From Clostridiales bacterium (GTDB lineage Bacteria; Bacillota; Clostridia; Christensenellales; UBA1242): a DNA stretch of 64,000 bases. The translations under genes and the position numbers were made by a program. The stretch is taken from the NCBI GenBank assembly GCA_015055605.1, contig SVHV01000002.1, forward strand, positions 288,220-352,219. The letters run 5' to 3'. The notes under the pieces are model-generated. The model did not search any database, was not told where the DNA came from, and saw nothing but the letters and a program-made list of their open reading frames with translations. Within the stretch, counting starts at the first letter, position 1. The number at the start of each line of letters is the position of its first letter. This document shows positions 9,238-46,849 of this stretch, piece by piece.

Positions 9238-9414
9238 AGGAAAACCCTCCATTATAAACTCATTGTATCATAATAATTTTAATTATTCAATGCTATATAG
9301 TCATGAATGTGTATTTTTTATTTTTTAATATATCCATATTTTCTTGCGTTTGCCTATTGAAATGTGGTTTGGATTATGGTAAAATTACTACGCTTAGAAA
9401 CAAAGGGGAATATT

Positions 9415-10038
9415 ATGGCAGAGAGAAAAGATTATTCACAAGAATTATATAGAGAGTTTTTAGATTCAGTAGATACTGAATTTATGGCAGATACACAATC
9501 TCAGTTTTTGTTGAATTATTTTAGTGCAAATAGGTTATATATCAAGGGTGTAATTGCTGATGGGGCAATGCTTTTTACGAACGACCAGAATATTTACAAT
9601 AAGGTTATGTGGAGTGAAAAGCAAAGATGCGCTATGGCTAATGAGTCTGATGATTATATGGACCCTGATGCGTGTGTTGGTAGTGTGCTTGATTATGGTG
9701 TTATTGCTCAGAGAGGTTTTTCTTTACCTGCTGAATTGCCTATGCCTTTTGATAATGTTTTGCTTATCTCTGAGGCTGATGTTAGGGGTAGTGATGGTAG
9801 AATGAGTAGGGGCAGAAAGACAATGGTTTTCTCTCACGATACTGCTAGGCTAAAAGATTTTACTCATATACTATCTCAAACAATGTCTGAGTCTAACAGG
9901 GGTGAAAGAGCAATAGATATTAGTGCTAGTTTTGAGAATAATAGGGTTGAGGTGCAGGGAGATAATCTATCTCAAGTAGGATACCTTGATAGTGTTATTA
10001 ATGAATGGATAAAAGCTAATCCAGATTTGGTTAAATAA
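9415..10038 (+). CDS. hypothetical protein
   Basis: ORF track 9364-10038. The ATG at 9415 follows AAAGGGG. I recognised no motif. Confidence 0.5.
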   Translation: MAERKDYSQELYREFLDSVDTEFMADTQSQFLLNYFSANRLYIKGVIADGAMLFTNDQNIYNKVMWSEKQRCAMANESDDYMDPDACVGSVLDYGVIAQRGFSLPAELPMPFDNVLLISEADVRGSDGRMSRGRKTMVFSHDTARLKDFTHILSQTMSESNRGERAIDISASFENNRVEVQGDNLSQVGYLDSVINEWIKANPDLVK

Positions 10039-10072: not shown

Positions 10073-10684
10073 TTATTTAAGTATTGCTAATATTTCATCT
10101 TTGGCAACCTTGCCTTCTCGTAATATTTTGACATCATTATCTACTACAGAGATTATTGTAGAAGACTGATTTTCGTGTGGGAGTCCTGAGTCTATAATGT
10201 ATGGAATTTTCCCTCTAAACTTCTCTAAAATCTCTGTTGGCGAATTAAGTGCAGGCTCGCCAGTGAGGTTTGCTGATGTAGACACTAGAGGTTTTCCTAT
10301 TTGAGATAAGATTTGTTCACACAATGTGTCATCTGGTACTCTAATAGCTATTGTCCTGCCTCCTCTAGTAATGGTGTCGCAGAATGGGTATCTGAGTGGG
10401 AATATTATGGTGATGGGACCTGGCCAAAAGTGAGAAATGATTTTCTTTGCCTCAGGGGAAATGTCTCCTATATAATGAGAAAGGTCAGTATCTTTGCTCA
10501 TAAGGAGAATGAGGGGTTTGTCCTCTCTGCCTTTGATTTTGGCTAAGTTCTCACAGGCCTCTGAGTCTGTTGCTATACAGGATAGTCCGTATATGGTATC
10601 TGTTTTAAATGCTATTGTTTGACCATTGTTTAGAGATTCTATAGCAAGGTCAATATTATTTGTTGTGATTATTTTTGTTTCCAT
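10073..10684 (-). CDS. tsaC: L-threonylcarbamoyladenylate synthase (YrdC/YwlC/Sua5 family)
   Basis: AFKTDTIYGLSC..IKGREDKPLILLM..STSANLTGEP are the conserved blocks of the family. Confidence 0.8.
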   Translation of the reverse strand: METKIITTNNIDLAIESLNNGQTIAFKTDTIYGLSCIATDSEACENLAKIKGREDKPLILLMSKDTDLSHYIGDISPEAKKIISHFWPGPITIIFPLRYPFCDTITRGGRTIAIRVPDDTLCEQILSQIGKPLVSTSANLTGEPALNSPTEILEKFRGKIPYIIDSGLPHENQSSTIISVVDNDVKILREGKVAKDEILAILK

Positions 10685-29628: not shown

Positions 29629-32600
29629 ATGTTGAAGAAAATTATTCTTTCTGTGATTTTGGTACTGGCGTCAATGTTGGTACTGGATACTAATATTGAT
29701 AGGTATGAGACTAAGGCTAGTTCCTCTAATATTATTACTTCTGATACCACACTAAATAGTGATATTGTGATTACTGAAGATAATGTTTCGGGAGATTATT
29801 TTACTATTACGGCTGGTGCAACTCTGAGTGTTGGTTCTATTACCATTTCTGGTCAAGCGAATTTGGGATCTTTGTTTAGGGTTGAGAATGGTGGAAGTTT
29901 AGTAATAAATGATTTGACTGTGTCTAGTGGCTTGAACATTACTACAATTGTTGTAAATTTTGGCGATGTTCATATTAAAAAATTAAGAGTAAACTGTAAT
30001 GCTATGGGTGATATTTACAATGACTCTGATAATTGTATTATAGAAGATGTGAATATTAGTCGTATTACACTGGTTTCTGGATATTTGACTGTTAATGAAA
30101 ATACAAAACTGGAAAAACAGATTAGTGTGGATTGTTTGGAGTCAAAACAATCTGTTCCTAGCCTTGTTGTAAAGGGTGATGGTGTGTATGCTAGTTATTT
30201 CATGGACAAGTTTGCTTATTATGGTTCTTATAAATATGTGAATACCAGTAACCCACTTGATACAACGCAATACCCTGCATACTTTGATTATGTTGGTTCT
30301 ATTGATAAGGTGAAGTCAAATAAGATTGATACTCTAAGCGCTGTTGGTTTGTCTACGGGAGATATTATTCTTACTGCGAAGACTGGTACTTATACAGATG
30401 CTGATAGCAATATTATATCTTTAGCTGGTAGATATACTACAATGAATGATTATTTAAGTAGTGGCGACTATACTGGTGGAACATATATGTTTAGGAGTGG
30501 ACTATATGATACTAATGTTAAGGTTGCCATGGATAATTACCATATAGCAGTTAGTACAGGTGCAGTATCATCTTTTGAAGAAGTAATTGATAGCAACTTA
30601 GAGCTAACTGTAGACTCTTATCTGAATAGTACAAAAGTAAATACATCGGTATATGACAAAGTTGGTTTGGGTGGTAGTTGGTTAGTCTTTGTAGACAAGG
30701 TAACTCCTGATTATACTATTAATAAAACAGAAAATATTGCATATACTACACTGTATGATTGTGCTTCACATATTGCCTTGTTAGTTTCTCATTCTGGTAC
30801 AGGAGTGACTGCAACATTAGGTGTGTCCTTTGTGGAAGATGTTACAATTAGCGTGTCTGCTCAATTAAGAGTTGATTCGTTTGAGTATAATGGTCGTAAC
30901 AGATGTGATGATATCGAGGCATTCTTTGTGCATGGAGGAGTTGAATATCCTTTGCGTGTAAATGGTGCTTCAATGATATCTGTCGGTCAGTATAGTGTAG
31001 AACTTTACCATACAGACCCTCAATATGTTGTTAACAATTCTATTCTTACAGTGTATATTACTGCTAAAGAAATTTCTCTTGATTACTCACAAACAAGTAG
31101 TGTGTATACGGGTGAGAGTATCGTTGTTTCTGCTACTTCTAATGGAGTAATTACAGGAGATGATTTGGGTCTTTCTCTTACAAACAATAGACAGGTCTCA
31201 GCGGGCACCTATACTGTAAATGCAAGTATTACTAATGGTAATTATGTGCTCGCAGATGAGTCTAAAACATACAATTTTGTAATAGATAAAGCAACTATTG
31301 ATGAGAGTTTGATTGCTTTTGAGGGTGTAGTTGAAGAGTATTCTGGAATCGGCGTTTTACCGAATCTTTCTGGTGTAGATAATAGGATTGTTGAAGTACA
31401 TTATGACTATGATGATATAGATATTGTCAGTGTGGGTACACATATTGTCAAAGTCTACCTATCTGTGATAAATGCAAATTACTACAACCTTCACACTACA
31501 GAGTATCAGGCAACGGTAACTATTTTACCTAAAGAGGTGATTCCGTCACTAGTAGAGGTGGAGATAGAATATTCGGGAGACCAGCCTGCTCTAGAGTTTA
31601 ATTTTGATGGTTTAGTAGGGGAAGAGTGGATATATTTAGATTATGATATGCCTACAGAATTTAGTGTTGGTGATTATTCTATAGATGTGTCTATAGATGT
31701 CACAGATGGCTATGGTGCTAATTACAAAATCAAAGACGGTTATGAAACTTTGTCATACAGTATAGTTAAGGCTACTGTGGATATGTCGGGTATTAGTTAT
31801 GATGACTGCACTATTCCTTATACAGGTATTGCTTATATGCCAGAGGTTGTAGGAGTTCCTGATTGTGTTAAGGTTGATTATGAATCAGAGAATGATATAT
31901 TTAAATTAGGCACACATACTATTACTGCTAGATTTAGCTTGTATGATACATATAATTATAATCCTCTCAGTGTCACATCTATTTCAATGACTCTAACAGT
32001 CGTTCCAGCAGAGATAGATGTTGAAGAAGTGGTTATGGATAATATTGCAGTAGACTATGATGGTGAGGCTCATGGTTTAATTGTAGAAAATCTACCTGAG
32101 AATGTTTCTGTGTCTCCTGTAATGCCAACATATACAAATGTTGGAACATATAATATAACAGTTACACTTGTTCCTGTTAGTAGTAATTATGTTTTGGTTG
32201 GTAGAGATAGTATGACACTAACAGCAACACTTACTATTAATGCGATTGACTATGACTTATCTGGGGTGGTTTGTGAGGACACAACTGTTACTTATGATGG
32301 CGAAGAACATACAATTTTATTTACAGGAACACTTCCTGATGGACTTACTGCAAATACACTTGTAAAGAAAGTTAATGTTGGTAGTTATGATATAGAACTT
32401 TCTTTTGTTAGTGCTAATGATAATTACAATCTTCCTAGTCCTATCACAAAGAAATTAACTATCTTGCCAAAGGTGATTACTATATCCCTTGTGAGAGATT
32501 GTTTTACATACACAGGCGAAGAGTTTACTGTAGAGTATACATTAGAGGATGTTTGTGATGGTGATACAGTAGAGGTCGTTCTGCTTAATAACAAAAATTC

Positions 32601-33627
32601 ACAAGCATCTAATTATGTTGCAACAGTAGACAGTATTTCTAATAGTAATTATACTTTGGATAAAAACTCTCTACCTTATACTATTGCAAAAGCAAATATT
32701 AATATGTCAGGCATTTCGTTGCCAAATAAAGAGATAGAGTATTTTGGTGCTGTTTATACTCCTGCTATTACTGGTACACTTCCTACAGGAGTAACTTGTA
32801 GTATTACTCACTCTGAAATTAAAAATGTTGGAACATATAATATTGTAGCGTCATTTACAGTTGGGGATAATTACAATAAACCTAGTGACCTGACTGCAGT
32901 GATTACCGTACTACCTAAGCCTGTTGTAGTACAATTTAGCAATCATCTAAACCTTATGTATACTGGAGAGACTCAGTATATTAGTGTTAGTGTTGTTGGA
33001 ATGATAGTAGAAGAGGAATATACTGTTGTTTATTCTGCTGAGCCTAGGGAAGTGGGCGAGTATATGTGTGAAGTAATCCTTGCTGCAGATTCAAATTATA
33101 CCATTCCTGGTGATACTAGATGTTACTTTGATATTCATACGGACCACAAGACATTCTCTGATGACGATTATGTATTAAATGTTACAAATGGTATGTTTAA
33201 GGCTAGTAATGAAGTTTATGTAGATAAAATAACTTTGGATACATCTGTGTTTGGTAGAATAAATGCCTTACATACAGATATAGCATTTGTGGATAGTCTT
33301 AAGATTATGTCTGACCATGGTGAAAGTGCTGTGAGTGTTTCACTAGAACTAAAAGACTTAAATCTAAAGAATGCAAAGCATATAACAGTGTACTCATTAA
33401 ATACAGAGGGCCAGTTGATAAAAGTAAATTATCAAGTGGTTGGCAATGCTCTCCAGTTCTCTGCTCTGCCTAATAGCAGTTTCGTTATTGTTCAAGATAG
33501 AGTGGATAATTCTATAATGAGATTAGTGGTTATAGTTTTGGCCTTATTTGTGGTTGTGCTTGCATTTAGTCTAGTTATGGCGATTAGAAACGGTAGACAA
33601 AAGAAACTTAAGTCACAGATTAAGTAG
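29629..33627 (+). CDS. giant cell-surface protein: signal peptide, beta-helix-like N-domain, about 10 MBG/YGX-type Ig-like repeats, C-terminal TM anchor
   Basis: N-terminal signal sequence. Recurrent ~80-aa units share the pattern Y(T/S)G....(V/I)G(T/S)Y.(I/V)......NY.L......(L/I)(T/V)I.(P/K). The hydrophobic LVVIVLALFVVVLAFSLVMAI is followed by RNGRQKK. Confidence 0.8.
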   Translation: MLKKIILSVILVLASMLVLDTNIDRYETKASSSNIITSDTTLNSDIVITEDNVSGDYFTITAGATLSVGSITISGQANLGSLFRVENGGSLVINDLTVSSGLNITTIVVNFGDVHIKKLRVNCNAMGDIYNDSDNCIIEDVNISRITLVSGYLTVNENTKLEKQISVDCLESKQSVPSLVVKGDGVYASYFMDKFAYYGSYKYVNTSNPLDTTQYPAYFDYVGSIDKVKSNKIDTLSAVGLSTGDIILTAKTGTYTDADSNIISLAGRYTTMNDYLSSGDYTGGTYMFRSGLYDTNVKVAMDNYHIAVSTGAVSSFEEVIDSNLELTVDSYLNSTKVNTSVYDKVGLGGSWLVFVDKVTPDYTINKTENIAYTTLYDCASHIALLVSHSGTGVTATLGVSFVEDVTISVSAQLRVDSFEYNGRNRCDDIEAFFVHGGVEYPLRVNGASMISVGQYSVELYHTDPQYVVNNSILTVYITAKEISLDYSQTSSVYTGESIVVSATSNGVITGDDLGLSLTNNRQVSAGTYTVNASITNGNYVLADESKTYNFVIDKATIDESLIAFEGVVEEYSGIGVLPNLSGVDNRIVEVHYDYDDIDIVSVGTHIVKVYLSVINANYYNLHTTEYQATVTILPKEVIPSLVEVEIEYSGDQPALEFNFDGLVGEEWIYLDYDMPTEFSVGDYSIDVSIDVTDGYGANYKIKDGYETLSYSIVKATVDMSGISYDDCTIPYTGIAYMPEVVGVPDCVKVDYESENDIFKLGTHTITARFSLYDTYNYNPLSVTSISMTLTVVPAEIDVEEVVMDNIAVDYDGEAHGLIVENLPENVSVSPVMPTYTNVGTYNITVTLVPVSSNYVLVGRDSMTLTATLTINAIDYDLSGVVCEDTTVTYDGEEHTILFTGTLPDGLTANTLVKKVNVGSYDIELSFVSANDNYNLPSPITKKLTILPKVITISLVRDCFTYTGEEFTVEYTLEDVCDGDTVEVVLLNNKNSQASNYVATVDSISNSNYTLDKNSLPYTIAKANINMSGISLPNKEIEYFGAVYTPAITGTLPTGVTCSITHSEIKNVGTYNIVASFTVGDNYNKPSDLTAVITVLPKPVVVQFSNHLNLMYTGETQYISVSVVGMIVEEEYTVVYSAEPREVGEYMCEVILAADSNYTIPGDTRCYFDIHTDHKTFSDDDYVLNVTNGMFKASNEVYVDKITLDTSVFGRINALHTDIAFVDSLKIMSDHGESAVSVSLELKDLNLKNAKHITVYSLNTEGQLIKVNYQVVGNALQFSALPNSSFVIVQDRVDNSIMRLVVIVLALFVVVLAFSLVMAIRNGRQKKLKSQIK

Positions 33628-34413: not shown

Positions 34414-34948
34414 TGTACTATCCTCTGCATAAAAATATATGTTAATTATATGTTTTAGTATTTAAGAAAGTCAAGTGATTGGGTAGATGCTGAGAGGTGG
34501 TGGGTGTGATTTGTGAAGAGGACTATATAAAAAGTCTTTACAAAACATTGTTTTTGTATTAATATAAAGGTATCAATTTCGTTTGAAATTGTTCCCATAT
34601 TGTACAAAAACTTTATGTATCATTGAAAAAAGGTTATAGCCTTTTGATAATGAAAATTTTTAAAAGTATACAAAAGGGTCTGATACTTCATAATTATTTC
34701 TCCTTTCAATTTATTTGTAAAAGTAAATTGATGGAGAGTTATGAAAGATTGACCTCTATGGATGAGAATGCCTCGTGCTTAATGCACAAAAGATTGTACA
34801 GATGTATAGGCTCTGAGACTGCTATAATGGCACCTCCAAAAATTATTGTGTACAAAACAATTCATTGTGGGTCTAAGATTATCATGTTATTTACCTCCTT
34901 TTTGTAAAAACTAAGGATACATTGTTGAATGTGGATTTAAGTGTAATA

Positions 34949-35051
34949 GTTTTTGTATCTTATAATTTCTAGTGGGTCTATAACTAACCATAAAACACCT
35001 CACTTAAATTTTTCAGTTTTTGTATCTTATAATTCCTAGTGGGGCTATAAC
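34949..35051 (-). CRISPR. minimal CRISPR array: two 36-nt repeats and one 31-nt spacer
   Basis: Repeat 1 at 34949-34984 is GTTTTTGTATCTTATAATTTCTAGTGGGTCTATAAC. Repeat 2 at 35016-35051 is GTTTTTGTATCTTATAATTCCTAGTGGGGCTATAAC. Identity is 34/36 and the period is 67 nt. The reverse complement of repeat 2, GTTATAGCCCCACTAGGAATTATAAGATACAAAAAC, ends in AAAAC as Cas13a/d repeats do, hence the minus-strand call. The array lies 255 bp upstream of the cas13d-like ORF. Confidence 0.7.
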
Positions 35052-35180
35052 TAAGACAGATGAGATAACTGAGTGAAAAAGTATATGATTGCCCGATATG
35101 TATTAAGAGCAGAGCGTTCTGGTCTTATTTTTTTTACAATAGAAAAAGACAGGTGTACGCTCCTGCCTTTTTATAAATAT

Positions 35181-35209
35181 TTGACATGGGGTCTGAATTA
35201 CAATATAAT
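35181..35209 (+). promoter_or_regulatory. consensus sigma-70/SigA promoter for the cas13d-like gene
   Basis: TTGACA (35181-35186), a 17-nt spacer, then TATAAT (35204-35209), about 100 nt upstream of the start codon. Confidence 0.7.
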
Positions 35210-35306
35210 CAAATTATCAGGTTAAAGGAAATTTAGGCTGTTTCTCTTTGTGAGATAATAATTACAAAGGTTGTGCTTTTAATGATAAGGTTGCAATCAA
35301 CAAGGA

Positions 35307-38153
35307 ATGTTTATGAAGAAATTTTCTAATATTAAAAGGCTCGGAGTAAAGTCTGTGCACTATGCTAATAATACTGTTATAGTAGAGGACCATTTTTCTA
35401 AAAATACGAACATACTCTTTACTGCAGAGTATGAGAATATTGATGACTTAAAGTCTTGTACTAATATTGATAAAACTGCTGAGAACAAAGGTGTAAGATT
35501 TACAGACCTAAAGAACAAGAATGGATTTGAACTTAGTGCCATGGCTCAGAAACAAATCCTAAAATCGAGAGTGAATAGGGTAAAAAAAGTATCTTATACT
35601 CAAGAGTTATTTGACATTACTACCGATAATAATATTGAGGTGCAGATATTTAGTAACTTAGAAGATGTAAAGAAAGTTATTGCACCATACTATAATAATG
35701 TTGCTTATGCGATTAATTCGCTTTATAGAGATATATCTAATGACGATAGTTATGGTTTTGATAAAATTGGCTCTATTCCAGTAGATGCTGATTGGTATAA
35801 TTTTTTAAAAGATGCACCAGATAAGAAAGAAAAGTGGACAACATATATTATTCCGAGTTACAAAAAAGTTATTGCTAGATTTGGTATCCAGATGGAAAAA
35901 AATCAGCAGGTTAATTTTTGCAAATGTTTAGAATATGTGGCTATTAGAAATGGTCTTTTTGTTAAGTTTAAAGACGAAAAAGTTGACCCTGATAAGTTGC
36001 TAAATAAAAAGATTCAAGAAAAACTAGACAAACTAATTAGTGATAAGGAAGTTAATGACAAACTTTTTGAATTGGCAAAAACTCCAGTGTCTGAGTTTTG
36101 TGCAGAGGCAAATGCTATACCTCTATATAGATATGCCTTTATTGGACAAAAAGGTAAGAGGATAGAAAAGATTGTTCTAGACAAATTAGAAGAAAATGAA
36201 ATTCTTAGTTCTTTGGTTAGGAAGATCGATGAAAATGAGACGACATACAATTATCTAAGATTGCTAAGTGCTATCAGACAATATGTTGTGCATAATTCTA
36301 GAAAAGTTAGAATAGATAAGAATGTGTTTATCAATGATACGGCTAAGAGAGATGTTGAAGAATTTGCTAAACAATTCCAAAAGAACAACTACAAGTATTT
36401 CTGTATCCTAAAGGAACTATATTCGGATAGCGATATTTTGGAGCAGTTCTTTGACTATACTGTCTTTGATGAGGCTAGAAATTTAAAAATTTCTATAGAT
36501 AAGATTAAAAAGGGTATTACAGCTAATATTGATATTTCTGCTGATGTTGAGCCAGATAAATTATCTGAATATGCCAACAAATTTAGAACAGTAACAATGT
36601 TTGCGCTCACTAAATACCTAAAGGAAAATGTTGGAGAGATAGAAGACTTTCTTGCGAATATCAAGGTGTGTTCTAGTGATGAAGAAAAGGCTGGGGTTTA
36701 TGAGCAAAAGGCTAAAGAATTTATAACTAAATTCGATAGTTTTAAGGATATTAGGTCAGTAGTAAAGAAACATTTGGGAACTCAGAAAGTGAATGAGAAA
36801 TTTGACTTTTATCCATCAGATATTAATTTTGGTAGGGATAGTAATGTGTTCTTCAATATGTTATATGTTATGAGTAAATTCCTAACAGTTAATGAGGCTC
36901 GTATTATGTTCCAAAAAATCAAAAGCAAGTATGATAGTGTAAAGTCTTTGCTTAAGATTGCTGAATTAACAGGTGTTACCCTTAGTGATAATTTATTCGA
37001 TAGATTCCGTATGATATTTGATAAAGAAAGGGTTGACGAGTATCAAAAACAACTCATTGTTTTGCAAAGTATTAGGACTAGAAATGGTGTTAGTCAAGAA
37101 GGCTTTGCTAAAGAACTAAAGAGAATCTTTGACATGTTCAAAAAAGACGATATTTCTTATGAGGAGTTTGAAAAAGAACTAAGTTTGGACGAAAATCAAA
37201 ATGAGATTAAGAATAAGTCGTTTAAACTAAAGCCCCTTAAGAGTTATCTTAGAAATGATGTCTATAAATCTAAACAATATCAGTACATTTCTTCTTTTGC
37301 TTCTGCAGGAATCTGTCAGAAAATTATGGAGAATAAAGATATTGTTGCCTTTGTATTAAATGGTATGTTGTATCAAGAAGGCAAACTCAGTATGCCTATG
37401 CATAAATATGTTGCTAAGGTATATCATGACTTTAGAAGAGAAAAGATTGATGAGAATAGTGCTAATTATTTATTAGACCAAAACCAAATATCTTCTTTGG
37501 TAAATAGTCTGTGTGACCTAAAACTGGAGAATATTATTGAGGCTATTTTTAAAGAGTCAAGAGTGAATTATAAGGCACTAGTTAGACTCTATCTTAATAT
37601 TTGTTATTTGTTTGTTAAGAATATTATTTCGCTTAATTCTACCTATTTGATTCAGTTTCAGGATTATGAGAATATTTATAAGCAACTTCATCTAGAAGAT
37701 TTGATGGATATAACTTATGATTTTGGTGTATTAAATAACTTTGTAGAGAATGCTCCAAACAAAAAATGTAGATCATATATGCAACTACAAACATTGCTCG
37801 AAAAAGATTATATAAAGGATTATATTTATACTCCTGAATATCAAGTATTGCAAGATAGATATAGAAATCTAGTTGTTCATTCTTCTTTATTATTTGGTCT
37901 TGATAAGATTGATTTTGATTTTGGCGAGGTGCAGAATATTTCTTCTTATTTCGCTATTTATCAGACTCTTGTCCAGAGACTTGTGGAGCAAGATGCTAGA
38001 GAGGTGTGGGGTGAGAAGTTTGATGAGTATTTTGCTCTAAATAATGGTAAGACTTATTCAACTAAACTATGTATTGCTCTTAATATGCCTTATGCATATA
38101 ATATTTCTAGATTCAATAATAATACCATTGAAAAATATTCAAACAAAAGGTAA
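35307..38153 (+). CDS. cas13d: Cas13d-like type VI-D CRISPR effector (dual-HEPN RNA-guided RNase)
   Basis: 948 aa; the likelier start is the ATG at 35313, 6 nt after AAGGA. HEPN motifs are SAIRQYVVHNS (R324/H329) and RYRNLVVHSS (R853/H858). Blocks resemble Eubacterium siraeum Cas13d as I recall it: GVKSVHYANNTVIV, VQIFSNLEDVKKVIAPYYNNVAYAINSL, LVRLYLNICYLFVKNIISLNSTYLIQF, SSYFAIYQTLVQRL and MPYAYNISRFNNNTIE. It sits next to the repeats. Confidence 0.88.
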   Translation: MFMKKFSNIKRLGVKSVHYANNTVIVEDHFSKNTNILFTAEYENIDDLKSCTNIDKTAENKGVRFTDLKNKNGFELSAMAQKQILKSRVNRVKKVSYTQELFDITTDNNIEVQIFSNLEDVKKVIAPYYNNVAYAINSLYRDISNDDSYGFDKIGSIPVDADWYNFLKDAPDKKEKWTTYIIPSYKKVIARFGIQMEKNQQVNFCKCLEYVAIRNGLFVKFKDEKVDPDKLLNKKIQEKLDKLISDKEVNDKLFELAKTPVSEFCAEANAIPLYRYAFIGQKGKRIEKIVLDKLEENEILSSLVRKIDENETTYNYLRLLSAIRQYVVHNSRKVRIDKNVFINDTAKRDVEEFAKQFQKNNYKYFCILKELYSDSDILEQFFDYTVFDEARNLKISIDKIKKGITANIDISADVEPDKLSEYANKFRTVTMFALTKYLKENVGEIEDFLANIKVCSSDEEKAGVYEQKAKEFITKFDSFKDIRSVVKKHLGTQKVNEKFDFYPSDINFGRDSNVFFNMLYVMSKFLTVNEARIMFQKIKSKYDSVKSLLKIAELTGVTLSDNLFDRFRMIFDKERVDEYQKQLIVLQSIRTRNGVSQEGFAKELKRIFDMFKKDDISYEEFEKELSLDENQNEIKNKSFKLKPLKSYLRNDVYKSKQYQYISSFASAGICQKIMENKDIVAFVLNGMLYQEGKLSMPMHKYVAKVYHDFRREKIDENSANYLLDQNQISSLVNSLCDLKLENIIEAIFKESRVNYKALVRLYLNICYLFVKNIISLNSTYLIQFQDYENIYKQLHLEDLMDITYDFGVLNNFVENAPNKKCRSYMQLQTLLEKDYIKDYIYTPEYQVLQDRYRNLVVHSSLLFGLDKIDFDFGEVQNISSYFAIYQTLVQRLVEQDAREVWGEKFDEYFALNNGKTYSTKLCIALNMPYAYNISRFNNNTIEKYSNKR

Positions 38154-38186
38154 ACCCATATAGAAATGTTGTTGGATTTAAGGTAA

Positions 38187-38226
38187 CAAAAAAGCGAAGG
38201 TGAATTGTTTCACTTTCGCTTTTTGT
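38187..38226. terminator. bidirectional intrinsic terminator between convergent genes
   Basis: AAAAAAGCGAAGGTGAATTGTTTCACTTTCGCTTTTTG is a stem flanked by an A-run and a T-run. Confidence 0.8.
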
Positions 38227-38245: not shown

Positions 38246-38932
38246 TTAGCAAGAGGTCTTATCATTACTAAAGTCGTCTGGTAATAAGTGGTCTCTTCTT
38301 ATATTTTTGTAGATGGTTTCAATATCTTGCTTAGTAATACCAGCTGTAAACCAGTCAAAATATCTATCATGCAAATCTGTTTTTTTGAATAGTTTAAAAT
38401 CCCCACCAACAGTAAATAGGTCGGTGACACCCTCAATTGCCTCACAAACAGGAATTGAATCTGTTCTGATTTTGCGGAAAGGTAGATAGTCAGACACTGT
38501 GTGGTAGTGTCCTTTTTCCTTGCTTTCTACTCTTTCAAAACCATACTGACTTAAGATATTGCTAACCATAGCAACACTTTGTTCACTGGCTGGCTCTATA
38601 TCGTTATTTTGCTCTACCTGTTCAGAGAGATAAGATACCACTTTACAAGCATCTTCTATGCTCATTTCGGTAGGTAGTCTAAATGGACTAGAAATACCAA
38701 AAGTTTGTCCTACTTTTGGCTCTTCTGTGCCGTATCTATTAAATCTTTCAAGGGCAGTATAATATAGTCTAATGGTTGGGATTCTTTTTGTGTAGTCTGC
38801 TTTCGCTAAGATGCTTACATCTCCCAGTTGACTATTTTCTTCTCTTTGCCTTTGAAGTTCTGCAAGGTCTACTCTAGCAATTAGTGGTAGTTTTTCTTTT
38901 TTCTTTTGTCTTAAATAATTTATTATTCCCAT
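38246..38932 (-). CDS. hypothetical protein
   Basis: ORF track 38246-38965. The ATG at 38932 lies behind AAAGGGG. No motif recognised and no WYL-like signature. Confidence 0.5.
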   Translation of the reverse strand: MGIINYLRQKKKEKLPLIARVDLAELQRQREENSQLGDVSILAKADYTKRIPTIRLYYTALERFNRYGTEEPKVGQTFGISSPFRLPTEMSIEDACKVVSYLSEQVEQNNDIEPASEQSVAMVSNILSQYGFERVESKEKGHYHTVSDYLPFRKIRTDSIPVCEAIEGVTDLFTVGGDFKLFKKTDLHDRYFDWFTAGITKQDIETIYKNIRRDHLLPDDFSNDKTSC

Positions 38933-39098
38933 ATTTACCCCTTTAACATATTGAAAGTATAACATATATCATATTGTTTTTCAATACCCTATAATGAAGA
39001 TGTATTGTGGGGTGATAGGTGTGATGAATGATTTTGTTAAGAAAAAAGAGACGAGGTCTCTTTTTTTGTTTGAGATGTTAATTTAGACTCAGGATAAA

Positions 39099-39719
39099 TT
39101 AGCGAGGTTGATTTTTGATGATGAACTCTCTTAATGAATTTAGTCTTTGTTCAAATTCAAATCTAGTTAGTACTGTTTCGCTTTGATTTTCTCTGCCTAT
39201 GTGGTGTAGGAGATATTTATCTTCCGTAGAGAGTAAACATTTTTTATAGAGTGGATTTTTAATTGCAGACAAATATAATTCGTCTAGAAATGTCTGGTAT
39301 TCTTCACTATCTCTTTTCATGGGTTTGCCTTGCCAATAGAGTGTTTGTGTTTCTCCCCAAAAGTCTAAAGTATTGGAGCCTCTTGTGTGATATGCATCTA
39401 GCCCAGAGTATTTAAAGATTAGGTTCTGAGTCTTTTTGTCTTTGTGTTTTATTCCTTGTAATACTCCCTCAATGCTGTTTACCCATTTACCTCTAAATCT
39501 AAAACGAATAGGATATAGATTTGATAAAGTTCTAGATAAACTATTTTTAAAGTTGTAGCCGATATTGATAAATGTATCGCTGTCAGAATATTTTTTCTCT
39601 TCATCTTCTACAAGTTCACCATTGTAGTATATCTTGTCCTCTATGGTTTCCAGTGGGATATAGTTAAATGTGTAATTTTTCCTAAATTCCGTGTATTTTT
39701 TTATACTCGTTTTATTCAT
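39099..39719 (-). CDS. hypothetical protein, possible NADAR (YbiA/DUF1768)-like domain
   Basis: LSNLYPIRFRFRGKWVNSIEGVLQGIKH versus E. coli YbiA FSNFAAWPIKVDGKTWPTSEHYFQAQKF. LLSTEDKYLLHH versus LLATAPAKLVEH. Resemblance judged by eye only. Confidence 0.4.
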   Translation of the reverse strand: MNKTSIKKYTEFRKNYTFNYIPLETIEDKIYYNGELVEDEEKKYSDSDTFINIGYNFKNSLSRTLSNLYPIRFRFRGKWVNSIEGVLQGIKHKDKKTQNLIFKYSGLDAYHTRGSNTLDFWGETQTLYWQGKPMKRDSEEYQTFLDELYLSAIKNPLYKKCLLSTEDKYLLHHIGRENQSETVLTRFEFEQRLNSLREFIIKNQPR

Positions 39720-45202: not shown

Positions 45203-46849
45203 ATGTCGGGTTTAAAAGCTTTGACAATGATGCAGTTGAAAGACAAGATAGATATGTCTTTCTTAGGTAGCACAAAGAAGACGATTTTTAAAGTTGTTTT
45301 GTCGTTACTTAAGTTTATCATTATTACTGCTCTAATCTGGGTTGGATTCTTCCTCCTAGATTATCTCAACTTAGTGTCATTACTTCCTGGTATTCCTCAA
45401 GAGGTTTTTGCAATAGTTTTTACACTTATGTTTGTTTTGTCTATAGTGGTTTGTGTTTATGGATTGATGAAAACCTTATACTTTGGTAAGGACAATCAGT
45501 TACTCCTAACACTTCCTGCTAAAAAGTCAGTAGTGTTTACATCAAAACTTCTTGTATATTATTTTTATGAATTAATCAGAAATCTATATTATATGTTGCC
45601 AATCATAGTAGCGTATGGTGTTATTAACGGAGTTTCTATATCTTTCTGGTTGTGGCTCATTCCTGCTTACTGTGTGGTTACAGCAGTGCCTGTAGTTGCA
45701 GGTGCATTGCTCTCTATACCTGCTATGCTTGTTGCAATTATTTTAAAGAACAACAAATGGCTACAATATCCTGTAGTTGCTGTGTGTGTTGCAGGTATTG
45801 TACTAGCATTACTTTCTGTCATTTCTATTATTCCAGCAAATTTTGATTTGTTGGGTACATGGGGAACGACATTTTGGGAGATTCAGGATTTTATCATTGA
45901 GTTCTGTTCATCATTTAAACCATTTGTTTGGGTCGCTACATTTATTGTTGGCGAAAGATATGGTATTAGAAACAAATTCTTTACTAAAACACAATTGTTT
46001 ACAGGTGCTGGTTTAGTTGCTGGAATTGTGGTTGTAATGATCGTAACATTCCTAATTGTAAGGCCGATATATTTCAAGATGGCGAGTGTTCCTTTTGAAT
46101 TTAAAAAGATAAAGGTTAATAAAATATTTGCTAATCAGAAGAAATCGCCTGTTAGAGCGATTGTGAAAAAAGATGGCAAGATGTTACTTAGAGATAGCGA
46201 AAAGCTATTCTCATTAGTGGCTATTGCAATAGCATTACCTATTTCAATATTGTTACTCAATAAAATATATGCCGCTATGGATACTGGGCTTACAGGTATG
46301 CAGATGGCTGTTGCATTTAATGTACTACTTATTTTGCTTGTTGCGCTGTCTTCTAATGCAAGACTTGCACATATATACTCAGAAGAGGGTGCTTCTAGTT
46401 ATTTAAATAAGACTAGTCCTCAAACTTATCTCAAATTATTGTTTAGTAAACTTATTATAAATATGGTTACAATTACTATATCTATACTAGCTACTGTTAT
46501 TATATTAGCACAATTTCAGGCATACACATTTTGGCAAGGATTGCAAGTGTTTATACTTCTAGAACTAATTTATTTGTCGCACTTGCTCATGTCTGCAGAA
46601 TTAGATATTATGAATCCTCAGACAGAGCAGTACCAGACAACGGGTGGACATACTAATAATCCAAATGAAACTAAAGCTACTATTATAGGATTTTTAATGT
46701 CGGCTCTGTTTGCTTTCCTTACATATTTCTTTATTGCAGAAAATCGTACAGTTGTATGGATAAAATTAATAGTATTTGCAGGTATACTATTTGCAATTAG
46801 AGTATGGTTCTATGTAAATAAAATAAAGATTTACTATAAGGAGAAGTAG
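45203..46849 (+). CDS. polytopic membrane protein, putative ABC-2-type permease partner
   Basis: RBS AAGGAGGAG. 548 aa with many TM helices. Starts 13 nt after the ATPase gene. Confidence 0.65.
   Translation: MSGLKALTMMQLKDKIDMSFLGSTKKTIFKVVLSLLKFIIITALIWVGFFLLDYLNLVSLLPGIPQEVFAIVFTLMFVLSIVVCVYGLMKTLYFGKDNQLLLTLPAKKSVVFTSKLLVYYFYELIRNLYYMLPIIVAYGVINGVSISFWLWLIPAYCVVTAVPVVAGALLSIPAMLVAIILKNNKWLQYPVVAVCVAGIVLALLSVISIIPANFDLLGTWGTTFWEIQDFIIEFCSSFKPFVWVATFIVGERYGIRNKFFTKTQLFTGAGLVAGIVVVMIVTFLIVRPIYFKMASVPFEFKKIKVNKIFANQKKSPVRAIVKKDGKMLLRDSEKLFSLVAIAIALPISILLLNKIYAAMDTGLTGMQMAVAFNVLLILLVALSSNARLAHIYSEEGASSYLNKTSPQTYLKLLFSKLIINMVTITISILATVIILAQFQAYTFWQGLQVFILLELIYLSHLLMSAELDIMNPQTEQYQTTGGHTNNPNETKATIIGFLMSALFAFLTYFFIAENRTVVWIKLIVFAGILFAIRVWFYVNKIKIYYKEK

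Follow-up and report, generated by a model that had tools for sequence, protein, structure and literature searches.

A divergent type VI-D CRISPR locus with crRNA-like units whose conserved spacers complement a translation start

Several described CRISPR systems bear on the locus reported here. In the survey of Yan et al. (2018; PMC5935466), arrays adjoin 77% of cas13d genes and adaptation modules 19%, and mature Cas13d spacers are ~23 nt long. In CreTA, the guide CreA, which has degenerate repeats, silences CreT, a small RNA toxin with the hallmarks of a strong Shine-Dalgarno (SD) sequence, an efficient AUG, a mini-open reading frame (mini-ORF) and a stem-loop (PMC8501985; PMC10097628). CreR, described in types I and V-A by Shmakov et al. 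(2023) and Liu et al. (2023), is a degenerate mini-CRISPR with its own promoter beside a cas gene. A 2025 review of CreTA, CreR and CrePA likewise assigns CreR to types I and V-A and has CreTA acting through Cascade, while the terms "type VI" and "Cas13" are absent from the text of the survey of repeat-like regulatory RNAs by Shmakov et al. (2023). Our literature search combining Cas13 or Cas13d with CreTA, mini-array or crRNA-like (CRISPR RNA-like) found no primary report. Here, we describe a cas13d locus in a 64,000-nt stretch of the genome of a Clostridiales bacterium (GenBank assembly GCA_015055605.1, contig SVHV01000002.1, positions 288,220 to 352,219 of the forward strand; hereafter the window, to which positions refer unless another locus is named), in which decayed repeat-spacer units carry conserved spacers complementary to a ribosome-binding site (RBS). 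We could not find an earlier description of this architecture, i.e., a leader, arrays that are reduced or replaced by crRNA-like units, and anti-RBS spacers.

A sequence-only reading of the window had assigned a 948-amino-acid (aa) ORF to Cas13d and had proposed profile searches and a structure comparison, both of which were carried out. The effector gene has the following features.

35307..38153, + strand: cas13d coding sequence, 948 aa; the probable start at 35313 gives 946 aa
36276..36293, + strand: HEPN1 catalytic motif R324-x4-H329, invariant in alignments and aligned to the HEPN1 motif of 6iv8
37863..37880, + strand: HEPN2 catalytic motif R853-N-x3-H858, with R, N and H invariant, aligned to the HEPN2 motif of 6iv8
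35181..35209, + strand: cas13d promoter TTGACA-17-TATAAT, matching the consensus at 12/12 positions, with the same arrangement in the related locus L011
38184..38229, bidirectional: terminator common to cas13d and the convergent gene for a 239-aa protein, with a hairpin of -26 kcal/mol (z -7.2)

The effector scored 184.9 bits against the NCBIfam Cas13d equivalog NF038189, for which the cut-off is 150, and matched the PADLOC Cas13d models with E values of 4.8e-70 and 1.4e-69, the latter over its full length. In a phmmer search against solved structures, the significant matches were Ur, Rfx (CasRx), Es and Dj Cas13d chains only, and these alignments pair both HEPN motifs of the effector with those of the solved proteins. 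An AlphaFold2 (AF2) model computed from a 15-sequence alignment (pLDDT, 85.9; pTM, 0.81) had Cas13d structures as all of its top 20 matches in the PDB (E 5e-24 to 8e-13; target-normalised TM, 0.56-0.71), with the next match at E 5e-3. The effector matched no Pfam family, because Pfam has no Cas13d model. The profile, structure-chain, fold and HEPN tests agree, and membership of the effector in Cas13d (type VI-D) is therefore established, as the sequence-only reading had it. The two R-x4-H motifs lie at the residues named in that reading and are the only two in the whole protein; the R and H of HEPN1 and the R, N and H of HEPN2 are unchanged throughout a 6-sequence alignment of the clade and a 15-sequence extended alignment reaching down to 25% identity. 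Judging from family membership and these invariant residues, the enzyme appears catalytically intact and would be an active RNase. The ORF itself is present, though it probably begins at the second ATG (35313; protein beginning MKK), which is the choice of gene callers on 23 public contigs and in all relatives and is properly spaced from an AAGGA SD sequence that the first ATG (35307) abuts directly. The promoter and terminator attributed to cas13d were both recovered. The same reading had regarded the system as the most compact type of its kind; Cas13bt, Cas13X and Cas13Y are smaller than Cas13d.

Like the characterised Cas13d proteins (Es, Ur, RfxCas13d/CasRx and Dj), the effector is ~950 aa long, carries its HEPN motifs at about one third of its length and near the C terminus, has the same fold, and occurs in Firmicutes-type metagenome-assembled genomes (MAGs) from gut or rumen. 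Its identity to them is 16-18% in structural alignment and 22-23% by BLASTP. Word-indexed searches returned seven metagenomic proteins that are at least 47% identical to it, followed by a drop to 22-23% for Es-type Cas13d, and 1.84 billion representatives searched exhaustively with HMMER yielded 358 relatives, a handful of them intermediate. Relatives with 29-36% identity were found in four GTDB genomes, which are MAGs of Clostridia, uncultured Bacilli and Acholeplasmatales from roe-deer cecum, sheep rumen and similar sources. Scans of genome loci with the single effector protein and of viral loci found nothing. The effector is a new, compact and deeply divergent Cas13d lineage in a small isolated clade. 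At least 23 contigs, drawn from several JGI, ENA and SRA samples, carry an identical effector; given their 99.98-100% identity across 8-23 kb, they represent one strain.

The sequence-only reading had placed the start of the array at 34949. The array region begins ~410 bp further upstream, with a leader promoter at 34537, and is composed as follows.

34537..34565, + strand: sigma-70-type promoter TTTACA-17-TAATAT at the leader of the array transcription unit
34568..34612, + strand: 5' end of the leader RNA, comprising TATCAA, a 7-bp hairpin (CAATTTC/GAAATTG), TTGTTCCC, and then ..GTACAAAAAC
34674..34710, + strand: pseudo-unit a, with the repeat 3' end AAGGGTCTGATAC (34674-34686) and the pseudo-spacer TTCATAATTATTTCTCCTTTCAAT (34687-34710)
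Antisense to unit a, - strand: SD AAAGGAG (34706-34700), 8 nt, ATG at 34691, 23-codon ORF
34844..34903, + strand: pseudo-unit b, with a decayed repeat (34844-34879) ending in GGGTCTAAGAT and the pseudo-spacer TATCATGTTATTTACCTCCTTTTT (34880-34903)
34862..34901, - strand: candidate minigene antisense to unit b, with AAAGGAGG (34901-34894), 8 nt and ATG (34885)
34949..34984, + strand: repeat R1, GTTTTTGTATCTTATAATTTCTAGTGGGTCTATAAC, with a 3' end matching the canonical Cas13d repeat end GGGGTCTAAAAC and no stable hairpin
34985..35015, + strand: spacer S1, TAACCATAAAACACCTCACTTAAATTTTTCA, anti-RBS-like (CAT, nt 5-7; CACCTCAC, nt 13-20)
35016..35051, + strand: repeat R2, the terminal copy, with 2 mismatches to R1, including GGGTCTA to GGGGCTA
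35143..35173, + strand: array-transcript terminator that folds at -9.4 kcal/mol (z -2.75) ahead of UUUUU and has a homologue in the L011 terminator

The two pseudo-units precede the genuine repeats and have counterparts in related loci. Unit a has a repeat end that agrees with the 3' end of the genuine repeat in locus L019 at 13/13 positions; the decayed repeat of unit b has 70% identity to R1 across 30 nt, and its pseudo-spacer matches a pseudo-spacer in L015 at 19/20 positions. In total, eight units are present in five diverged loci (two each in the window, L013 and L015, and one each in L011 and L012), and they share the core GGGTCT..TCAT..CCTCCTTT (GGGTCTatTatT-TCATATTAaTTACCTCCTTT) between unconserved flanks. 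When the repeat end is counted as GGGTCT plus 5 nt, CAT occupies nt 3-5 and CCTCCTTT nt 14-21 of the pseudo-spacer; the exceptions are window unit b, in which both are displaced by +1 nt, and L011, in which CAT lies at nt 5-7 or 9-11. CAT..CCTCCTTT is the complement of AAAGGAGG-N8-AUG and, given this register and a mature spacer of ~23 nt, a guide made from such a unit would therefore cover exactly AAAGGAGG-N8-AUG(+2). When the 893 nt upstream of cas13d in the window were locally aligned with the relatives' upstream regions, nothing matched except the leader, the pseudo-spacer, the end of the unit a repeat, and short stretches of promoter and terminator. Because the remaining intergenic sequence can no longer be aligned between lineages with Cas13d proteins that are 47-60% identical, the CAT/CCTCCTTT core is, as judged from these alignments, kept by selection. 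Three of the loci (L012, L013 and L015) have the leader, the units and an intact cas13d and no genuine repeats on their contigs. A scan of metagenomes with the unit motif gave at least 120 loci; among the matches listed, none had a Cas13d relative, and all were ordinary gene starts.

The leader is conserved in L011, L012, L013, L015 and L017, in each of which TTGACA-17/18-TAnnAT occupies the homologous promoter position. Its hairpin (-7.6 kcal/mol, z -2.3) lies between invariant TATCAA and TTGTTCC flanks and shows compensatory changes in the stem across loci (UUUC/GAAA, CUU/AAG, CC/GG and UCC/GGA), and the window leader is 88% identical to that of L011 over 73 nt. The genuine array of L018 and both of those in L019 likewise begin with promoter, hairpin, GTTCC, 15-20 nt and repeat 1, and by this layout the conserved element is the array leader and the predicted 5' end of the pre-crRNA. 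From its position, the array region would be transcribed on the + strand, the same strand as cas13d. A search of the intergenic region against Rfam, with E up to 5, returned no family. The 3' part of the leader (34597-34612, ..GTACAAAAAC) complements the start of the repeat (GTTTTTGTA.., 34949-34958), as does its counterpart in L011 (leader 9396-9411, ..TTTATACAAAAC; repeat 5' end 9620-9634, GTTTTGTATAAA). A role for the leader as a trans-activating CRISPR RNA (tracrRNA)-like anti-repeat, with GTACAAAAAC facing GTTTTTGTA, was set aside since Cas13d needs no tracrRNA and the element precedes the L018 and L019 arrays. In the array-less loci (L012:2392-2408, L013:~2962-2990 and L015:1634-1655), cas13d lies directly behind an intrinsic terminator without a recognisable promoter of its own, and its expression there would thus depend on read-through from the leader promoter.

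The two 36-nt repeats that the sequence-only reading had placed 255 bp before the ATG are present. R1 and R2 are identical at 34/36 positions with a 67-nt period, their similarity runs to 51 nt at 86%, and chance could not plausibly give so long and close a match within 6 kb. On the cas13d strand they end in GGGTCTATAAC and GGGGCTATAAC, in agreement with the conserved Cas13d repeat 3' end ..GGGTCTAAAAC. As in Cas13d, the 36-nt repeat lies 5' of the spacer and ends in GGGTCTA(A/T)AAC; this 3' end is the only part common to the clade and the canonical Es repeat. S1, the single bona fide spacer of the window, had no exact match in viral contigs. The mini-array named in that reading is nevertheless not a normal one: its repeats lack the hairpin of Cas13d repeats, it follows two decayed units, and its spacer-like parts are conserved anti-RBS sequences and not derived from phages. 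The fold energies of the window repeats are no better than those of shuffled sequence. Since the missing hairpin is a feature of the RNA, it lowers confidence in the function of the array and not in the membership of the protein. Stability of the repeat hairpin declines along the same series of loci as array size, as listed here.

Es-type control: repeat fold energy -12.8 kcal/mol (z -3.8)
L019: -8.5 kcal/mol; 3 + 3 repeats
L018: -6.9 kcal/mol (z -3.4); 2 repeats and a truncated third
L014: -5.1 kcal/mol; at least 2 repeats and a decayed third (contig end)
L011: -1.5 kcal/mol; 3 repeats
Window: -2.6 (z -0.24) and -4.7 (z -0.47) kcal/mol; 2 repeats
L020: 3 repeats
L012, L013 and L015/16: no genuine repeats anywhere on the contigs

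Two Es-type control loci have 16 and 10 structured repeats, with spacers differing between contigs. Unlike these controls (10-16 repeats), the clade has arrays of 0-3 repeats, and the window and L011 have lost the repeat hairpin. Further differences from characterised Cas13d systems are the conserved leader, the anti-RBS pseudo-units and, in the window, the absence of a WYL accessory gene.

The minus strand of every unit has a strong SD (AAAGGAGG, or AAAGGAG in unit a), 8 nt (6 in L011), an ATG and an ORF of 2-23 codons. The encoded peptides, given below, are not conserved.

Window unit b, - strand: MIILDPQ-stop (codons after the ATG: ATA ATC TTA GAC CCA CAA TGA)
L012 and L015a, - strand: MKQ-stop
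L013b and L015b, - strand: MK-stop
L013a, - strand: MT-stop
L011, - strand: MRHRRPGRW... (20 aa)
Window unit a, - strand: 23 aa

In the 128 kb of both window strands, AAAGGAGG-N6-9-ATG occurs twice only, antisense to unit b and at a real gene starting at 45203, and an SD as strong as AAAGGAGG precedes 1/22 real genes of the window. Within 6 mismatches per 24 nt in the window and the related loci, the sole perfect target of the pseudo-spacers is their own antisense strand. Beyond this, unit a matches two generic gene starts and the units of L013 and L015 match their sister units, each time with 5 mismatches per 24 nt; there are no other matches. No pseudo-spacer complementarity to the promoter, 5' untranslated region (5'UTR) or RBS of cas13d was found, with specific pairing to the RBS judged by eye. 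Exact searches of viral contigs for S1, the sequence after R2 and three pseudo-spacer targets gave nothing except a generic phage gene start, and this match ends at the 23-mer and does not extend. In L011, the pseudo-repeat forms a good hairpin (-9.3 kcal/mol) that scores on the minus strand as an intrinsic terminator right after the SD-ATG, which predicts an RNA of ~50 nt, and the first codons of the mini-ORF (CGA, CGT, CCC and CGG) are very rare by the codon usage of the window, taken as a proxy for that of L011. Minor codons after the start were not seen outside L011, since ATA, AAA, CAA and ACA are common in the window. Downstream of the mini-ORFs, L011 has the terminator hairpin and the other loci have weak, non-significant structures.

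These features can be combined in a model in which the locus would be a chromosomal type VI-D module with two transcription units, one being cas13d with its own consensus promoter and strong terminator. The other would be a leader-driven RNA that comprises, from 5' to 3', the hairpin-GTTCCC leader, the two decayed repeat-spacer units, R1-S1-R2 and the terminator. Cas13d would bind the repeat 3' ends (GGGTCTA + 4 nt) to yield crRNA-like RNAs with ~22-nt spacers, and a loaded guide with CAU at nt 3-5 and CCUCCUUU at nt 14-21 would cover the AAAGGAGG-N8-AUG translation-initiation region. On the reading that we favour, such guides would direct Cas13d to occlude or cut one specific RBS, for which the opposite strand of the same units, with its SD, ATG and 2-23-codon minigene, is the candidate. 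The conserved core and its register suggest that these spacers are not a record of phage infection and serve self-regulation or addiction instead.

The resemblance to CreTA, known from types I-B and I-F, lies in a degenerate repeat with a conserved spacer-like sequence in a cas locus (here in eight units of five loci) and in an adjacent strong SD, AUG and mini-ORF with an unconserved peptide, which is here a sequence feature only; a CreTA-like arrangement would also rationalise retention of the effector. Unlike in CreTA, the effector targets RNA, the guide and the candidate toxin overlap as perfect antisense, consecutive minor codons are absent (with the possible exception of L011), and a toxin promoter was not seen. 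The locus shares with CreR a degenerate mini-CRISPR with its own promoter beside a cas gene and a spacer conserved between relatives, implying a regulatory target. It differs from CreR in that its spacers were not found to complement the promoter, 5'UTR or RBS of cas13d and in that its action would be on RNA at an RBS. The mini-ORFs also recall the toxic minigenes of the lambda bar type, which consist of a strong SD, AUG, one or two codons and a stop: the predicted ORFs in L012, L013 and L015 read MK, MKQ or MT before the stop, and the second codon in the window is AUA.

Whether the pseudo-units are functional crRNA-like regulatory guides, i.e., type VI analogues of CreA or CreR, is in our judgement evenly balanced. 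Several points weigh against it. The evidence for conservation of the units comes from five loci, three of which belong to one sub-branch, and the identical-protein contigs, ten of which were compared, are clonal and therefore uninformative on spacer turnover. Binding of the units by Cas13d is uncertain because the 5' parts of the pseudo-repeats are unconserved and the window repeats lack the stable stem-loop of Cas13d repeats. The pseudo-crRNAs of the + strand and any RNA of the minus strand are predictions. No conserved minus-strand promoter at a fixed distance was found in a consensus scan that is crude in such AT-rich DNA and gives a weak result, and the mini-ORF of L012 comes directly after a minus-strand terminator that leaves no room for a promoter. 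Finally, a perfect antisense target should trigger collateral RNase activity unless tag:anti-tag pairing blocks it, and in the literature we found this block documented for Cas13a and Cas13h only.

Alternatively, the locus could be an ordinary immune Cas13d locus in decay, in which the array has shrunk without adaptation and the conserved core is an old trailer-end spacer or unrelated to Cas13d. Most Cas13d loci lack cas1 and cas2, R1-S1-R2 is formally a normal repeat-spacer-repeat, L014 and L011 carry spacers without anti-RBS features, S1 and S3 of L011 look duplicated as expected from array drift, and the HEPN residues are intact, all of which fits decay. However, neutral trailer spacers would not outlast divergence of the proteins to 47-60% identity while their flanks were randomised; moreover, conservation is centred on the positions complementary to the SD and the AUG, which keep a fixed distance from the repeat end, three loci keep only units and yet an intact cas13d, and no viral match was found. 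We therefore consider decay possible and rather unlikely. More specific is a CreTA-like addiction, in which a minus-strand minigene RNA would be toxic through ribosome or tRNA sequestration, its RBS would be bound by pseudo-crRNA-Cas13d with the nuclease held off by tag:anti-tag pairing, and loss of cas13d would kill or arrest the cell. This would explain why cas13d is retained in array-less loci, and it agrees with the CreT hallmarks of the SD-N8-ATG mini-ORFs in all five loci and with the terminator hairpin right after the start and the rare CGA/CGT/CCC/CGG codons in L011. Yet a toxin promoter was not found and is disfavoured by the geometry of L012, minor codons are confined to L011, downstream stem-loops are weak or non-significant in most loci, anti-tag inhibition is not established for Cas13d, and known CreA guides repress a promoter by partial pairing rather than an overlapping antisense RNA; we regard this addiction scheme as doubtful.

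It is very improbable that CAT..CCTCCTTT is independent of Cas13d, as an anti-SD small RNA (sRNA), an arm of a + strand terminator hairpin in which CCUUU pairs with AAAGG further 3', or part of small ORFs, with the adjacency of GGGTCTA being historical. CU-rich anti-SD motifs are common in Firmicute sRNAs, and in both L012 and the window CCUCCUUU has a potential pairing partner downstream, AAAGG(A) with a U-rich sequence after it. However, a hairpin arm would covary instead of staying invariant, and these hairpins are weak (z -0.6 to -0.7); the unconserved peptides argue against real small ORFs, and every unit keeps the same register to its repeat 3' end, which favours a crRNA-like unit. Returning to the units as guides, we regard as unlikely on present evidence the fuller proposal of a type VI counterpart of CreTA/CreR, in which a self-targeting, domesticated Cas13d is retained not for immunity and acts as a translational repressor or addiction module, with the guides having taken the place of the entire array in some relatives. 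If the pseudo-guides are loaded into Cas13d, crRNA-like self-regulation or addiction would extend to an RNA-targeting CRISPR type, and an RBS-masking guide would be a natural CRISPR-based translational repressor; if true, this would help explain the persistence of effector-only type VI loci with almost no spacers. The conserved anti-RBS pseudo-guides make the locus of greater interest than a plain orphan effector. In addition, the clade bears on what Cas13d truly needs in its repeat, and an effector that is 16-23% identical to the tool enzymes and has unstructured, AT-rich repeats is of practical interest for RNA targeting.

The window (GC content, 33.5%) is ordinary chromosome, with genes for Sua5, a NUDIX protein, ABC transporters, a chromate transporter, EF-P, the CCA-adding enzyme, TilS and three tRNAs. 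No Cas1, Cas2 or WYL Pfam domain was found in 40 ORFs across ~10-60 kb of the window, no cas1 or cas2 was found near cas13d in the relatives' loci, and no adaptation genes lay within 6 kb in the Es-type control loci. The observation in the sequence-only reading that no other cas genes are present is thus borne out over that interval; it is ordinary rather than remarkable, as absence of an adaptation module is typical for Cas13d and shared by ~81% of loci. PADLOC detected no defence system among 10 neighbours, with generic ABC-ATPase similarity only, and a defence-island context was rejected on this basis. Just 3' of cas13d, 39099-39719 (- strand) encodes a T4 gp30.3-like protein (PF08010, 1.4e-34) and 38246-38965 (- strand) the 239-aa protein, which belongs to no family; neither matched PADLOC. 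A 1332-aa surface protein with a signal peptide, a membrane anchor and MBG-type repeats is encoded at 29629-33627 (+ strand), and L012 has a similar MBG protein near cas13d. In L013 (1786-2636) and L015 (386-1236), a zeta-toxin gene (PF06414) and a gene for a 77-aa protein adjoin the leader-units-cas13d module and are a probable toxin-antitoxin pair. A 94-aa ORF with a TTG start (34623-34907) was rejected as a gene, being uncalled on any public contig and overlapping the units.

A second conserved pseudo-crRNA-like unit, Element C (G(G)TCTAyTAnnATAnTTTTAAATGGTAATTCAAC), is present at L011:9933-9965, L014:~337-370 and L017:1187-1219. In L017 the element follows the leader, and in L011 and L014 it is part of the cas13d 5'UTR; the window lacks it. 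A complementary target of Element C was not found; from its sequence and placement, it may be an autoregulatory Cas13d binding site. The cas13d promoter of the window contains a repeat-end-like GGGGTCTGAATTAC between the -35 and -10 boxes (35188-35201), possibly left over from Element C.

Within the mini-array of L011, spacers S1 (9537-9558) and S3 (9655-9676) are 73% alike, which suggests that this array grew through duplication rather than acquisition. In L014, which still has ordinary spacers, the decayed third repeat (103-160) is followed by GTTATTTCATTAGCCTTTG, in a region that looks like a degraded anti-RBS unit. In Es-type arrays (L142:9439-9471 and 10170-10236; L143:7774-7818), the terminal repeat is altered from GGGGTCTAAAAC to GGGGTGTAGTTTTTT and can pair along its whole length (GAACTACACCC with GGGGTGTAGTT) ahead of a U-run; it looks like a built-in array terminator. 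Directly 3' of the Es-type array in L143 (8252-8800) are six tandem SD+ATG units encoding near-identical 28-aa hydrophobic peptides (MTKQVLTSVIAAALTGAIGVITALGKGD).

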